This document shows, in pieces, positions 364 to 6,720 of a stretch of 6,720 nt of DNA (positions are counted from its first letter, which is position 1; each line of letters opens with the position of its first letter). Source of the DNA: a virus; IMG/VR virus record IMGVR_UViG_3300029856_000098, positions 1 to 6,720 of that record; one strand, given 5' to 3'. Position numbers and translations under genes: made by a program. The notes under the pieces are model-generated. The model was not told the DNA's origin. It worked only from the letters and a program-made list of their open reading frames with translations, and did not search any database.

Positions 364-1761
364 TTACAAAGTTTCTTTATAAATAGCAAGAATATTCTCG
401 TTATCTGTTTTATATTTAACATATGTTATATCAATCTCAGGTTGCGTTGACATATATTCACTCATAAACTCGTGATGTTCACGCTTAGCAGAAGTCATCA
501 TTTTGTAATACTCGAGATCGAATTCGTAAGCATCAAGCATAGCCAAGAGAGGTTCAAGAATATGTTCCATGACGATAAGGCTATCTTCCTGATGAATAGC
601 ATAAAAGTTCTTCGCATTATCAAAAATAAAGCGAGGAAAACGTTCAACACAAGTGTCAAAATTGTAAAAAGGATACTTTTCCTGAAGACGTTTACGAGTT
701 ACATTAACTTCCTTGTCAGGCATACGAAGATGTATTTGCCAGAGACAAGCACGAAGTGACAAAAAGTAATCGGCAAGCTGAATAGTATCACGTATCTCTT
801 TTCGAATGAGCATAGAGGGGGTCGGATAAAGTTTCCGACGGAAATATGCAGGGATATACGAAGTAAAGCGTTCACCTGTGAACTTATCAACAATTTCAAC
901 AGTTAAAATATCAGGATTTTGGTAAAACCACATGACGTGATCAAGGCACCATTTATAGCCGAGACCGCCGCCGCGGCGGGAGGATAGATAAAAAGTTGGT
1001 TTACAACCTTTAGGGACATCACTTTCTTTACGCATGTATTTCATACAATATTGAATACCACCTTGAGTACAAGGTTTACAATAGACAAATCCGAGTTCAC
1101 CTACATAATCCCAATCAAAGCGATGAGCAAGTTTATTATAAACTCGTTTTCGAACAGACCAAGCTTGATGGACAACCTGATACACGTCCATAGCAGACAT
1201 GTGAATAGGCATATTCCACAAAATAAGATGATAATGAGGCAATTTCGTATGACTGCCATATTCAGCGGCGGCAAAATACCGAATTTTCTCATCATAGTTA
1301 TGGTCTCTAATAAGAATTTGACGCAAACGCTTAAGAAAATCTTGTACATGTTTTTTATCTACACCGTCCGCGGGACGGTGTATGGGATTGTAAGTGAGGG
1401 TGATAAAATAGGGGACAGAACGGGACGACTGCGTTTCAGCAACAGCTCGAAACATCCAATCGCGAGCGTTCCTCCTTCGACAAAGACCACATTTACGACA
1501 TGGAGTTGCAAGGAACATCGGTACGAAGTCACCATCGCGGTCAACGGCATAAAAACTGTCTTGCCATGACGCAAGGTTTTGAAAATCAATGTTTTTCGGT
1601 GAAAACAAGGCATACGGAAAGTTCCAACGCCATGCAGCGAGTTGCATTTCCGGTACAAAAGTTGCATTTCCATCATAAACATATTTTCCAGTTTGTAAAA
1701 GTGCATCCTTAAAAGCAGGATTTAAAATATATTTTGGTTTTTCACAAAGAATATCTGTCAT
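364..1761 (-). CDS. VP4: Replication initiation protein VP4, an HUH rolling-circle endonuclease of the phiX174 protein A class.
   Basis: The 465-aa product carries motif I FITLTY (aa 119-124, nt 1390-1407) and HUH motif II HYHLIL (aa 176-181, nt 1219-1236). The double-tyrosine motif III is YCMKYMRK (aa 238-245, nt 1027-1050; compare phiX174 A YVAKYVNK). It also has the Cys cluster PCRKCGLCRRRNARDW (aa 87-102) and SRRGGGLG (aa 261-268), both typical of microvirus Rep proteins. Confidence 0.93.
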   Translation of the reverse strand: MTDILCEKPKYILNPAFKDALLQTGKYVYDGNATFVPEMQLAAWRWNFPYALFSPKNIDFQNLASWQDSFYAVDRDGDFVPMFLATPCRKCGLCRRRNARDWMFRAVAETQSSRSVPYFITLTYNPIHRPADGVDKKHVQDFLKRLRQILIRDHNYDEKIRYFAAAEYGSHTKLPHYHLILWNMPIHMSAMDVYQVVHQAWSVRKRVYNKLAHRFDWDYVGELGFVYCKPCTQGGIQYCMKYMRKESDVPKGCKPTFYLSSRRGGGLGYKWCLDHVMWFYQNPDILTVEIVDKFTGERFTSYIPAYFRRKLYPTPSMLIRKEIRDTIQLADYFLSLRACLWQIHLRMPDKEVNVTRKRLQEKYPFYNFDTCVERFPRFIFDNAKNFYAIHQEDSLIVMEHILEPLLAMLDAYEFDLEYYKMMTSAKREHHEFMSEYMSTQPEIDITYVKYKTDNENILAIYKETL

Positions 1762-2254: not shown

Positions 2255-2281
2255 CACAAGCTGACCAATGTGTCAGTTGTG
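2255..2281. other. Stem-loop immediately 3' (on the virion-sense strand) of the phiX-like nick motif.
   Basis: CACAA-g-CTGAC caatgt GTCAG-TTGTG gives 5+5 bp with one bulged G (2260) and a 6-nt loop. Confidence 0.55.
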
Positions 2282-2287
2282 CTACAT

Positions 2288-2297
2288 ATATCAAGTT
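2288..2297 (-). promoter_or_regulatory. Candidate viral-strand replication origin nick site, AACTTGATAT. It matches 10 of 10 positions of the phiX174 origin core CAACTTG/ATATTAATAAC.
   Basis: The minus strand reads TAACTTGATATATGTAGC starting at the TAA stop of the 94-aa ORF (2298-2296). The predicted cleavage lies between G2292 and A2291. The motif is on the coding/virion-sense strand, at the edge of the large intergenic region, next to a hairpin. Confidence 0.45.
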
Positions 2298-2580
2298 AGT
2301 CAATGCTGGATGTTTCACCCAGTCCACAAGCTCGACGATAAAAATCGTCGTAGGATACAGTAAGTGTAACCTTTCGGTTACAAAATGATTTGTCAATAAT
2401 ACCTGCGACATAAAAATCATCATTAAGCTTTTCCTCGATAAGAGGCAAGGCATAAAGTGTCTCCGATGAAAAATTCAACTCAATCAGAGCACGTAAAAGA
2501 GTGTTAACAGGTAGATTTTCAACACAAACATAAAATGTTTTCTTTCTCCTAGCACTTTGTAATTGCAAAAGAATGTCCAT
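2296..2580 (-). CDS. Hypothetical 94-aa protein with its own promoter (moron-like accessory gene).
   Basis: The ORF MDILLQLQSARRKKTFYVCVENLP...ACGLGETSSID is preceded by a consensus Bacteroidetes promoter at 2626-2657 and followed by four hairpins. I recognise no family motif. Confidence 0.55.
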   Translation of the reverse strand: MDILLQLQSARRKKTFYVCVENLPVNTLLRALIELNFSSETLYALPLIEEKLNDDFYVAGIIDKSFCNRKVTLTVSYDDFYRRACGLGETSSID

Positions 2581-2670: not shown

Positions 2671-3795
2671 CTAATCATAATATTCGTATGAAGTTTTCCG
2701 AGTAGTTACTCCACGATGCGTGGATGAGCTTTCAGATTTACTTTTAGGTTTACCTGAATTACTTGCGCGAGGGTTCGTAAAGGGAATAAATGTCGCAACA
2801 TCGTTTAAAATAGAATGAATCTGATTCATACTACGTTCAAAATCATTCCAATTCGAGTCCTGAGTAAGGTCAAAGCGGAGACGATCCGCTTCAGCGTTTA
2901 CCTTAAAGCCTAGATCCTGATAAAAAGAAGATAAGGCTTGATTTCGTTTCTCTTCAGATTTCATGAGAGGCAACTTACCAGAAAGTTCCAGAAGAGCAGC
3001 CTTAAGCTGTTCTTGAGAAACCTTAAGTTGACCTTGCAGGGTTTTTAACTTACCGTGTTCAATAAATGAATCCAAAGCAAAACGAACATGACGTTCCCAA
3101 ATACGATCATCAACATCAGCAGCTTGCGAAACCAAAAGATCAATTTCAGAATCAATCTTACTAATATTAGCGTTAATCTGTTCGACCATGCTACGAGATT
3201 GTGCAGCCTGAGAGTCATTAAGCTTAATTTCACTACCATTAACCAAAATAACACTTTTCATAGTGTCAAGCTGACCTTGATTAAATGCGTCACGAAACGA
3301 AGCATCAGAAGAAAGAATGTCATTTGTATGTTTCTGACCTTCGGTTTCAGCACTTGTCTTAGCTACCTGAGCAGATAAGGCAGTGTCCGCAAGAGCCTGT
3401 GAAGCAACACTTCCAATAGGTTTGTAACGATTCCATGCGGAAGTATCAGCAACAGGGCCAGAAGGAGTATGACCGCCTTGCGCCTGAATAGATGAACCTT
3501 GTAATGCACCATTAGTAGCATATAAATCAGGGTTAATATCTGCAGCTTTTAATCGAGCCTGAACGGCAGCAGGAGTATTATACTCATTATTAGCCTGCCA
3601 AAGCTTAAAATTCCAATCATTTTGAGCCTCACGTTCAGAGGTCTGCCATTTACGAGTTTTCTCAGCTTCTTCACGCGCCGCCGCGAGCTGTTTTTCAACA
3701 GATTGATTTTGAGAATGAGCACCAAATAAATTAGAGATGCCGGAAAGTGCGCCACCGATCAGCGCACTACCAGCACCTGCAAAAAAGCTTCCCAT
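2671..3795 (-). CDS. VP2: Minor capsid / DNA pilot protein VP2 (protein H analogue).
   Basis: The 374-aa product has the Gly/Ala-rich hydrophobic N-terminus MGSFFAGAGSALIGGALSGISNLFG typical of microvirus VP2. The middle is long, Q/A/E/K-rich and looks like coiled coil. Its position downstream of VP1 fits, and its start overlaps the upstream stop (TAATG). Confidence 0.75.
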   Translation of the reverse strand: MGSFFAGAGSALIGGALSGISNLFGAHSQNQSVEKQLAAAREEAEKTRKWQTSEREAQNDWNFKLWQANNEYNTPAAVQARLKAADINPDLYATNGALQGSSIQAQGGHTPSGPVADTSAWNRYKPIGSVASQALADTALSAQVAKTSAETEGQKHTNDILSSDASFRDAFNQGQLDTMKSVILVNGSEIKLNDSQAAQSRSMVEQINANISKIDSEIDLLVSQAADVDDRIWERHVRFALDSFIEHGKLKTLQGQLKVSQEQLKAALLELSGKLPLMKSEEKRNQALSSFYQDLGFKVNAEADRLRFDLTQDSNWNDFERSMNQIHSILNDVATFIPFTNPRASNSGKPKSKSESSSTHRGVTTRKTSYEYYD

Positions 3796-4108: not shown

Positions 4109-6370
4109 TTATTCAATATGAGGTATAGAGTTACGAGGAATAGTAGTCTTCTTAGTAATATCAAAAGCAATACTACCTAAAATCTTATCACCATTTTCAG
4201 CAGTCATAGCAAATACGTCATTAACGTGATCAGGGTTGACAAGAAGAAAATCCTTAGATAATTCAGGAGCTCTATCAAAAACGCGATTAATAACAAAGTT
4301 ACGCATAGAGCCGCGAAACTCGCCATGAACTTCATCGAAAGATGCAATCAAATCCCAATATGCACGTTGATAACCAAATACATTATTGATATTTGCAGGG
4401 TTCACAGCATAAGCCTGATACGGACACAAATGCTTATACAGCATAGGTTGGTAACTGATATTATTAAATTGCGGAAAATGCCAATCCAAAAGATTCATAC
4501 GGGTAAAATGTGGAGGCAACAGTTGCGAATAATTAGCAGCAGGAACAACCGACATAACACCAAGAATATAGCCGTCTTCCGGACAATATTTACGAATAAC
4601 ATGACGCATACCTGATTGCAAGGAACCTTGACCAGCAAAAGCACCTAACGGATTACCCTCTGCAGGTGTAGTTTGAGTTACCTTGTATACAGGTATGGTA
4701 TCAGAAATACCACCAAGGAATTCAGGCATCATAAGTTCATCATAATCTAAGTTAACATCGAAAAGACCTTTAACAAGATTCTTGTAACGCGGAGATTGAC
4801 GAATACGAATTTCAAGAAAACGTTGAAGCGAATTAACGTTACGGAAATCCGAGATAGATATACCCGAAGTAGCCATACCTATAAGGTTTCGTACAACATC
4901 AGCAGGGGCATTGGAAGATTTGACCTGAAAACCTGTAACAGTATCACCATCATCAGCAGTTTCAAGCTGTGCATGATATTCAGTACCAGCAGCATCACGG
5001 AATGTAGCTTCACCGAGAGAAGTAATACCTACAAGAGGAGCAATACCAGCTTGAGGAGACTGTAAAGCAGTAGTGTAAGCATCTGGTTCCCAATTAGCAT
5101 AATGCAACTGATATTTATAACTATCACGTCCACCTTTCACAGAAGGTACATAACGATTGTATTCAGGCTTACCATCTACAATAAACGGATTATTACGAAT
5201 ATCGCGGCCGAAAGCATTGTAATATGCTTCATATGCACGGAAAGGAAGTGCAGACAACGGAATAGGAGGCATTCCAGAAGAAGTATAGAAAGGACAATTA
5301 GCAGCTTCAGGCTTCGTCCACTCAGTCGAAGAAACTGTATAATAAAAATAATTCAAAATATTTATACTATAAATATCTCCCGTTTTAGAGCCTGAGCCAT
5401 GAACATAGGAAATCAAATGCTCTTCATGTACGTATTCACTTTTTACCTTGCGAACATCAACCCAAAATACCAATTGGGTAGTACCAGTAAAATTAGACTT
5501 TGTAGAAGAAACAACGTAATAGTCGCCTTGAATAGAGGCAGTAGTAAAATCAACATACGAAAGCTGCGTAACTATTTCACCGGAATCGTTATAAAATCCT
5601 ATCCAGAACGGACTATTATAATCTGAAAACCACTTGATTGGAAAACGGAACTCAATAACATCAATACCTATTTGCTCAACATCCCAAATATAAGGAACAC
5701 CAAAATAATTGCTTTGATAACCAACAGATGGACCAGCCCAATCATTCGTTACAAAAAGTTGAGATAATGGCTTTTCCGCTTGACGGTGAAAAAAATCAGA
5801 AATAGTAGCATCCGGAGAACCAAAAATCTGACTAGCGGGAAAAACAGGGTTGGCAATAACAGGGTTTGAGGAAATTGCATCCGAAAAAGTCAGACCTTTA
5901 AGACGGTCATAAGATACTTTGTTGCTCTCATATTCACGACCAAAAGAACCAGTAATCGTTGTCGGAACACCGAGATAGTCAGCAAGAGTACCAGTCTGGA
6001 GATCGTCGGGGATATTGAATTGCTGTTTACGACTATCGGTATTACCATCCGCAAGAATATCCATCCAAGGCGGAGTAACGGTTTCGTCACCACCAAAGAA
6101 AGACATCCAATCTTCCCAAAGAGTACGAGTACGAACATAAACGAAGTGTAAACGCACATATAATTGGGTCTGTATAGGGAATACGGTCGGAAGCAATTGC
6201 AAATTGAAACGGGCATTTATCTGAAAGGAATCACCAAATGAAGCAGGAAGCAAGCATACAGGGGTAATTGCTCCAAATTTCATCGTTAAATTGTTCACAA
6301 ACGAAAGATCGAAAGTAGAACGATTGACGCGATCTATATACGAATCTTTTTTACGAAATATATTTGCCAT
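4109..6370 (-). CDS. VP1: Major capsid protein VP1 (F-protein family), unusually long at 753 aa.
   Basis: The N-terminal signature is RSTFDLSFVNNLTMKFGAITPVCLLPASFGDSF...VRTRTLWEDW. Conserved blocks follow: LADYLGVP (aa 129-136), LSALPFRAYEAYYNAFGRD (aa 372-390), ISISDFRNVNSLQRFLE (aa 504-520), and GYILGVMSVVP plus YQRAYWD in the C-terminal part. Confidence 0.95.
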   Translation of the reverse strand: MANIFRKKDSYIDRVNRSTFDLSFVNNLTMKFGAITPVCLLPASFGDSFQINARFNLQLLPTVFPIQTQLYVRLHFVYVRTRTLWEDWMSFFGGDETVTPPWMDILADGNTDSRKQQFNIPDDLQTGTLADYLGVPTTITGSFGREYESNKVSYDRLKGLTFSDAISSNPVIANPVFPASQIFGSPDATISDFFHRQAEKPLSQLFVTNDWAGPSVGYQSNYFGVPYIWDVEQIGIDVIEFRFPIKWFSDYNSPFWIGFYNDSGEIVTQLSYVDFTTASIQGDYYVVSSTKSNFTGTTQLVFWVDVRKVKSEYVHEEHLISYVHGSGSKTGDIYSINILNYFYYTVSSTEWTKPEAANCPFYTSSGMPPIPLSALPFRAYEAYYNAFGRDIRNNPFIVDGKPEYNRYVPSVKGGRDSYKYQLHYANWEPDAYTTALQSPQAGIAPLVGITSLGEATFRDAAGTEYHAQLETADDGDTVTGFQVKSSNAPADVVRNLIGMATSGISISDFRNVNSLQRFLEIRIRQSPRYKNLVKGLFDVNLDYDELMMPEFLGGISDTIPVYKVTQTTPAEGNPLGAFAGQGSLQSGMRHVIRKYCPEDGYILGVMSVVPAANYSQLLPPHFTRMNLLDWHFPQFNNISYQPMLYKHLCPYQAYAVNPANINNVFGYQRAYWDLIASFDEVHGEFRGSMRNFVINRVFDRAPELSKDFLLVNPDHVNDVFAMTAENGDKILGSIAFDITKKTTIPRNSIPHIE

Positions 6371-6573: not shown

Positions 6574-6720
6574 CTTCCGGCTCAATTAGATATTGTTCAT
6601 ACATACCATCAGGGAGTTGACGGTCAGTAACAATCAACTGCATGGCAGCAGAAAGGGGAATGTGTTCACGGACTACAACAACAGTCGGTGTTTCTTCCTG
6701 AGTAGACAGAAATTTACGAG
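6566..6720 (-). CDS. C-terminal part of the 74-aa junction-spanning hypothetical protein (5' end cut by the window edge; 6622-6720 duplicates 1-99).
   Basis: This is the same reading frame as feature 1-169, continued across the junction. The stop TAA is at 6568-6566. Confidence 0.55.
   Translation of the reverse strand, partial: RKFLSTQEETPTVVVVREHIPLSAAMQLIVTDRQLPDGMYEQYLIEPEDD
6622..6720. repeat. Terminal redundancy, copy 2 (identical to 1-99).
   Basis: Same exact 99-nt match. The window ends inside the repeat. Confidence 0.97.

Follow-up and report, generated by a model that had tools for sequence, protein, structure and literature searches.

The closest described counterpart of the element reported here is the plus-strand origin of phiX174, G4 and alpha3 (Bullavirinae), a 30-nucleotide (nt) sequence cleaved by the gene A protein. 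The 3' part of these 30 nt is needed when the origin lies on duplex DNA. In phiX174 (NC_001422) the origin occupies positions 4299-4328 (CAACTTGATATTAATAACACTATAGACCAC), with rep_origin annotated at 4306, and a mutagenesis preprint places the cleavage between G4305 and A4306, within the 30-nt ori+ (bioRxiv 10.64898/2026.07.25.740675). The window analyzed here, the whole 6,720-nt stretch of IMG/VR record IMGVR_UViG_3300029856_000098, is the circular genome of a microvirus (6621 nt) that was opened arbitrarily at its ends, as seen from an exact 99-nt terminal duplication (1-99 = 6622-6720). On its minus strand, an 88-nt block running from GTGGAC to TGAATG (2240-2327) carries the phiX174 core in the form TAACTTG/ATA, where phiX174 has CAACTTG/ATA. 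We consider it likely, from sequence comparison, that this block is the plus-strand origin of rolling-circle replication and that it is nicked at CTTG/ATA, between G2292 and A2291. An origin at this site had been put forward in an original prediction made from the letters of the window; the comparative evidence described below supports that candidate, with the nick position transferred from phiX174.

The minus strand carries every long open reading frame (ORF) of the window and, since the packaged strand of Microviridae has the same sense as the mRNAs, it is the virion-sense strand; the motifs below are all read on it. The enzyme presumed to act on the origin is the replication initiation protein Rep (VP4; 364-1761, minus strand), an HUH endonuclease assigned to Pfam PF23343 and to the PHROG annotation replication initiation protein, with the motifs FITLTY, PHYHLILW and YCMKYMRK. 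The phiX174 A protein has an HFH motif and the sequence YVAKYVNK at residue 343, so that the phiX-like double-tyrosine motif noticed at the outset is indeed present: Rep has the HUH motif, the tyrosines of its Y-x-x-K-Y pair stand at the phiX spacing, and both initiators are of the HUH type with two tyrosines four residues apart. The two tyrosines of Rep, Y238 and Y242, are invariant in an alignment across 23 homologues. No solved structure of a protein related to Rep turned up in the PDB.

The minus strand at the motif reads cattgacTAACTTGATATATGTAGCACAACTGACACATTGGTCAGCTTGTGtg. Within it, AACTTGATAT (2288-2297) matches phiX174 exactly over ten bases that include the cleavage dinucleotide, and it is the sole copy in the window. 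Comparison with NC_001422 4299-4328 confirmed this identity as first claimed, and the stated cut between G and A agrees with the mapped G4305/A4306 position (bioRxiv 10.64898/2026.07.25.740675). The placement of the motif was likewise described correctly, as it is on the coding strand and borders, on the 5' side, the one large non-coding gap, a stretch of 534 nt (1762-2295) that separates ORF94 from Rep. ORF94 has its stop codon in the TAA of the motif (2298-2296); the phiX174 origin, in contrast, is located inside gene A (codons 107-116), whereas here the motif is intergenic and overlaps a stop codon only. The chance of such a match had been put at 0.013, or somewhat more given the AT bias, and the value obtained is higher, as foreseen: when the 6621-nt genome was shuffled 2000 times with its dinucleotide content preserved, AACTTGATAT turned up on one strand or the other in 3.7% of the shuffles. 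The raw resemblance to phiX174 is therefore only a lead, and the verdict must rest on comparative data. In both genomes an AT-rich stretch follows directly 3' (TATGTA here, TTAATAA in phiX174, and GAAAAT, TATATA or TAAGTA in relatives, which is varied but AT-rich), and a GAC-containing element follows 13-14 nt after GATA. In the 3' part of the phiX174 origin (ACACTATAGACCAC), GAC is found at the same offset as here, within AGACCA in phiX174 and TGACAC in the window. As a separate observation, A[A/G]CTTG is repeated three times, exactly 35 nt apart, in 2255-2330 of the minus strand (AGCTTGtggac, TAACTTGatat and cAGCTTGtgtg), with CATTG before the last two copies; the first copy reads TAACTTG in many relatives, yet it is unconserved overall.

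Conservation was assessed in an alignment of 22 distinct versions of the region, taken from 27 IMG/VR loci whose Rep is 78-97% identical. Three parts are invariant in all 22 relatives: TAACTTGATA, GCACAACTGACAC and GCACAACTGACACATTG-n-TCAGCTTGTG. The conservation of AACTTGATA at the same position in relatives, named initially as the check to be made, was thus observed, with one correction regarding the ten bases: the match is exact in the window, but nine of the ten are conserved and the final T varies. The conserved decamer is TAACTTGATA (2289-2298), the predicted recognition and nick motif TAACTTG/ATA, which is unique and shares 9 of 10 bases with phiX174 4299-4308 (CAACTTGATA). It is followed by a 13-nt spacer, TATGTAGCACAAC (2276-2288), the first six bases of which vary across the relatives while staying AT-rich and the remainder of which, GCACAAC, is invariant in the lineage, and then by the TGACAC box (2270-2275), which makes up the conserved 3' half of the composite signal. 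With a weight matrix derived from other microviruses, the site in the window reached 26.7 bits; the runner-up in the genome reached 2.6. The 88-nt block as a whole is 88-90% identical in the closest GenBank relatives, Dulem virus 258 and Human gut microviridae SH-CHD12, where it is unannotated and non-coding and where a sensitive nucleotide search of the ORF94-Rep region found the adjacent intergenic DNA to be unalignable; the block is thus shared with phages whose Rep has only 52% protein identity, as in Dulem virus 258.

ORF94 (2296-2580, minus strand; 94 amino acids) overlaps this block with its 3' end, which covers two of the hairpins described below (H0 and HA), so that the conserved block also supplies its last codons, and the nick motif its stop codon. 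Searches of Pfam and PHROG found no family match for it. The frame is open in 13 of 20 relatives, in which it encodes 93-99 amino acids of diverged protein sequence, and is absent in the rest, where it was lost through frame changes in the HA loop. The block is kept even in genomes that lack ORF94, and the constraint hence bears on the DNA.

When folded as single-stranded DNA (ssDNA), the region forms the predicted hairpins H0, HA, HB and H3 (z = -5.5), and HA and HB are separated by an unpaired linker of 23 nt that holds the nick motif. Hairpins flank the site here and are lacking at the phiX174 origin. HA (2306-2322, CTGGGTG-AAA-CATCCAG) ends 7 nt 5' of the TAACTTGATA decamer and 8 nt 5' of AACTTGATA, and shows one compensatory pair (U:A in 12 relatives, C:G in 10). 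HB (2255-2281, CACAACTGAC-ACATTG-GTCAGcTTGTG) begins 6 nt 3' of the end of AACTTGATAT and holds the TGACAC box in its 5' arm and loop. The 10-base-pair (bp) bulged hairpin reported initially at this position is present in the predicted fold of the window, but in most relatives it is a 9-bp bulged stem, the top C:G pair being found in 4 of the 22 and the other nine pairs being unvarying, and it is without covariation. Further out, H0 (2333-2350, CGACGAT-tttt-ATCGTCG) and H3 (2222-2238, GGAGCGC-ctt-GCGCTCC) change on both sides in relatives at 6 of 7 and 5 of 7 pairs, respectively. Beyond H3, the hairpin H4 (2180-2196, CGAAGTT-tcc-AACTTCG) was flagged as terminator-like; the homologous positions read CAAACTTcccAAGTTTG in Dulem virus 258 and CGAGTTTcccAAACTCG in SH-CHD12. 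The combination of invariant motif sequences with compensatory change in H0 and H3 points to sequence-specific recognition bracketed by structural elements. The importance of HB lies probably in the invariant TGACAC box that it contains.

To look beyond this lineage, 69 further loci, with Rep 26-45% identical, were fetched via the alignment of the 23 Rep homologues and oriented with Rep on the plus strand. A recurrent element was found in them, consisting of CTTGAT[A/G], 12-14 nt (mostly 13) and TGACAC. The element is strand-specific: with at most one mismatch in total, CTTGATA-N12-14-TGACAC gave 51 matches on the strand that carries Rep and a single match on its complement. At two mismatches or fewer the element is present in about 53 of the 69 loci, in non-coding DNA save for one weak hit, and several of the remaining loci carry recognizable variants. 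An anchor free of circularity, namely a perfect hairpin with a stem of 7 bp or more in front of TGACAC, gave 36 instances on the Rep strand versus 1 on the other; among the 33 distinct loops of these hairpins 28 contain CTTGA, although the stem sequences are unrelated. The nick that experiments have mapped in phiX174, CTTG/AT, falls within this conserved core of the loops, CTTGAT. The window site (CTTGATA, 13 nt, TGACAC; 2295-2270, minus strand) fits this family element, and appears from its sequence to be the local form of a signal common to the family, CTTGAT[A/G]-(12-14 nt)-TGACAC, which phiX174 carries without a hairpin and inside gene A.

The same core, again on the coding strand and in non-coding DNA, was found both in most of these diverse loci and in four classical gokushoviruses (Chp1, Chp2, SpV4 and phiMH2K), each of which has such a hairpin in an intergenic position. 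In Chp2 it lies at about 2903, with the loop TCTACTTGAT; in SpV4 at about 511, with the loop ATTACTTGTTATA followed by TTGACGAC; in phiMH2K at about 3295; and in Chp1 (NC_001741) at about 2749-2776, in the ORF3-ORF8 gap, as GGGCTATAT-CCTCTTGGCT-ATATAGCCC followed by GAGCGACAC. The Chp1 hairpin is absent from the four hairpin-like structures (h1-h4) annotated in NC_001741, though it matches the family-wide element. The gokushovirus-like architecture shares with the window the core, the spacer, the box, the strand and the non-coding position, and differs in having a stem of 7-19 bp that encloses the motif, with CTTG in the loop. In L064-L074, which are Alpavirinae-like, no more than 2-5 bp enclose the motif, and a hairpin of unrelated sequence stands 6-9 nt to its 5' side. 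In the window only CTA/TAG (3 bp) could pair around the motif, short of the 7 bp used as the anchor, and these bases are left unpaired in the fold; a separate hairpin lies 5' and TGACAC is built into a second one. The window and L064-L074 are thus a subgroup variant with a 5' hairpin in place of the enclosing stem, and their joint consensus is TAACTTGATA-TATATAGAGCAAC-TGACAC. The element is located about 95-111 nt upstream of the Rep start in L064-L074 and about 530 nt upstream in the window, because extra hairpin-rich DNA has been inserted there.

The sequence of the site, its strand, its place in non-coding DNA, its conservation, the covariation of the hairpins beside it and the motifs of Rep are observed; Rep binding, melting, the exact position of the nick and the role of the TGACAC box are what we infer in the following scheme. 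Rep would first bind the replicative form, a DNA duplex, at the invariant 3' side of the block, where GCACAACTGACAC and the HB inverted repeat lie. On the model of the phiX174 origin and its 3' part, the TGACAC box and the HB repeat plausibly serve for duplex binding, and the box is probably the duplex-binding determinant for Rep. The AT-rich segment between HA and HB would then turn single-stranded, a step that hairpin extrusion in supercoiled DNA may help, and one tyrosine of the YCMKY pair would cut TAACTTG/ATA at G2292/A2291 and remain on the 5' phosphate. The free 3'-OH would prime synthesis by a host polymerase. After one round the second tyrosine would cut the regenerated site, and the displaced strand would be ligated into a circle.

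Several observations weigh against a plus-strand origin. Taken alone, the exact phiX174 decamer is weak evidence, as it is mildly unlikely by chance and hence suggestive, not decisive. Likeness over the whole phiX174 origin was also considered as evidence and discarded, since an ungapped identity of 19/30 is within chance, being reached by 31% of the shuffles (P = 0.31); a second, unrelated 19/30 match to the phiX174 30-mer lies at +5104. The AGACCA of phiX174 differs from the TGACAC of the family, and homology of the 3' halves is thus not established. The phiX174 A protein presumably belongs to another Pfam family (Phage_GPA) than the PF23343 of this Rep. The HB stem, invariant as it is, offers no covariation to count; it is conserved as sequence, which is neutral on structure. 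Some 10-15 of the 69 loci have no clear match to the element. The block also tracks the capsid module (about 78% nucleotide identity in Dulem virus 258) better than Rep (only 52% protein identity in the same virus), and a packaging or host-factor role would fit this too. Finally, no mapped nick or origin outside the Bullavirinae was found in the searchable literature. A plus-strand origin is nevertheless the most economical reading, because the core spans the mapped phiX174 nick, is strand-specific, non-coding and conserved in sequence across differing hosts, and is accompanied by an HUH Rep with the phiX174 tyrosine spacing.

Three other functions were weighed against this one. The block might be the origin of the complementary (minus) strand, as are G4 oric and M13 ori(-), with its hairpins recognized in the incoming ssDNA by the host RNA polymerase, primase or PriA primosome. 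Its dense hairpin array, its strongly non-random fold and the covariation of several of its hairpins are in keeping with such a function; in addition, a primosome hairpin is described for phiX174 (PMC9865509), and conserved hairpins between Cap and Rep in two tiny microvirus clades have been considered as possible minus-strand origins, their function being left undecided (Olo Ndela et al. 2022, PMC9865509). We still regard this function as unlikely, given that the conserved parts are invariant sequence, beyond mere structure, that the loop core equals the phiX174 plus-strand nick site and not the primosome site, and that the motif lies in an unpaired linker here. The core is moreover kept across phages of Spiroplasma, Chlamydia and Bdellovibrio and gut phages of the Bacteroidales type, which a phage enzyme fits better than host priming factors, and the covarying H0, H3 and H4, or a long palindrome at 1949-2126, would be better priming candidates. 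It is quite unlikely, too, that the block is a packaging signal, a terminator of the structural operon or a Rep promoter or operator whose likeness to the phiX174 nick site is fortuitous. The block does come after the last structural genes and co-varies with the capsid module more than with Rep, TTGATA resembles the sigma-70 -35 hexamer (consensus TTGACA), and the raw phiX174 match is not very improbable. However, a pattern scan of 1700-2700 on the minus strand found no sigma-70-like site, HA and HB are not followed by T-runs, and in gokushovirus-like genomes the place of the element relative to the genes varies while motif, strand and spacing are fixed; the loop core is, furthermore, strongly enriched for exactly the phiX174 cleavage heptamer.

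The third possibility is that HB is a dif-like site for integration by the host XerC/XerD and that the AACTTGATAT match is coincidental. The sequence of HB is invariant and its geometry, roughly 10-6-11, would suit such a site; HB bears no evident resemblance to the dif consensus. Sites of the dif-like type, lying upstream of Rep, do flank Alpavirinae proviruses (Krupovic and Forterre 2011, PMC3091885), and these att sites share with the present element the intergenic region upstream of Rep and a geometry of short inverted repeats. They differ from it in that the element is common to phages of unrelated hosts, where it stands at a fixed spacing from CTTGATA and where a host dif would differ, and in that it is internal in the one prophage examined. 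In that degraded prophage (L067/L068) the element is intact and the junction is downstream of Rep. A block-pattern scan of species-representative genomes found no integrated copy of the lineage, only a free 6689-nt contig, and a better candidate for a dif-like site exists at 1949-2126, which has inverted CTATGTTAAA arms and is confined to the closest relatives. We thus judge a dif-like function of HB to be very improbable.

The plus-strand origin proposed here is of a known kind, a rolling-circle origin nicked by an HUH initiator, for which phiX174 is the type case; what is new is the architecture, with the site lying between genes and flanked by hairpins in an Alpavirinae-like phage, and the family consensus with its TGACAC box. 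No description of the motif or of the architecture outside phiX-type phages was found in the full-text literature, older subscription papers on Chp1, Chp2, SpV4 and phiMH2K being beyond reach. Functional analogues are known from other replicons. In CRESS-DNA viruses (circular Rep-encoding single-stranded DNA viruses such as geminiviruses and circoviruses) an HUH Rep nicks a short, hairpin-presented motif next to a Rep-binding element or iterons; their nick site, of the TAATATT/AC type, is unrelated, and their Rep has one catalytic tyrosine and a fused helicase; no homology is implied. The nic sites of conjugative oriT regions (TrwC, TraI) are preceded on the cleaved strand, a few nt to the 5' side of the nick, by a hairpin comparable to HA, and are cut by HUH enzymes with paired tyrosines, but they differ in process (conjugative transfer), in protein family and in sequence.

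We lean, with less assurance than for the window itself, towards a single ancestral plus-strand origin, CTTG/AT[A/G]-(12-14 nt)-TGACAC, common to essentially all Microviridae (phiX174, gokushoviruses and Alpavirinae) despite barely alignable Reps, and remodelled in three ways: moved into the loop of a hairpin, bordered by hairpins, or located within the Rep gene itself. Microviruses dominate single-stranded DNA viromes, and their origins may be predictable from sequence alone. If the shared origin is real, the nick site of thousands of uncultivated microviruses could be read from their sequence, as it is from the CRESS-DNA nonanucleotide, which would provide a natural start coordinate for the genome and a handle for building replicons. 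A signal defined in this manner would offer a concrete cleavage substrate for VP4-type Reps, allow consistent annotation and linearization of metagenomic microvirus genomes, and help to tell apart the plus-strand origin, dif-like sites and the hairpins for minus-strand priming, all of which occur in one intergenic region. It would also show that nick-site specificity was kept despite a very deep divergence of the initiator.

Other features of the intergenic region and of related loci were also recorded. The palindrome at 1949-2126 is long (about 190 nt) and imperfect, with arms of 55 and 27 nt, and folds as a single hairpin (z = -8.5). At the tip are inverted copies of CTATGTTAAA, a sequence that resembles the XerD arm of E. 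coli dif (TTATGTTAAAT); Rfam gave only a sub-threshold, miRNA-like match, on this tip. It is near-identical in the closest relatives and absent from the group with 80% Rep identity and from the Dulem virus 258 group. It is a candidate for a CTX-phi-like folded dif/att site, a minus-strand origin or an inserted mobile palindrome.

The prophage mentioned above (IMG/VR 3300029719_000294 and 3300029438_000362) is Alpavirinae-like and degraded, with VP1 truncated beside a DDE transposase and a Vsr gene. About 90 nt past the Rep stop, host genes (Usp and TPR) begin, and the origin-like element is intact between VP2 and Rep; being inside the prophage, it is not an integration junction there. Other loci were examined as prophage junctions and rejected. 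Two metagenome contigs (L056 and L057) carry Rep fragments of the lineage (P0038 and P0043) fused to host genes, one for an Rnf subunit and one for a regulator of the AraC type, and provided no junction that could be used; in a third case (L017, IMG/VR 3300045988_116266) Rep and VP1 of the lineage are joined to holin-like ORFs, probably in a chimeric assembly. All three are probably assembly chimeras or relics. The free 6689-nt contig (L138, NZ_QTJV01000041.1; also L026 and L062) belongs to the same phage lineage and was found in the assembly of Chitinophaga silvisoli K20C18050901, where it either hints at a Bacteroidota host or a replicative form, or else is contamination.

The remaining genes of the window include the major capsid protein (4109-6370, minus strand; Phage_F) and a pilot-like protein (2671-3795, minus strand). 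By its capsid and genome size the phage is placed, informally, among the large gut-associated, Alpavirinae-like microviruses. At 1777-1864 of the minus strand, immediately before the start of Rep, a GC-rich cluster of small hairpins (ATTCGCGAAGCGAAT, ACCCCTTTAGGGGT) is followed by an A-rich leader. This cluster matches otherwise distant microviruses (MG945248, MG945282, MZ089795 and OM869667) at 81-92% identity, and may be a promoter or leader of Rep or another mobile intergenic module.

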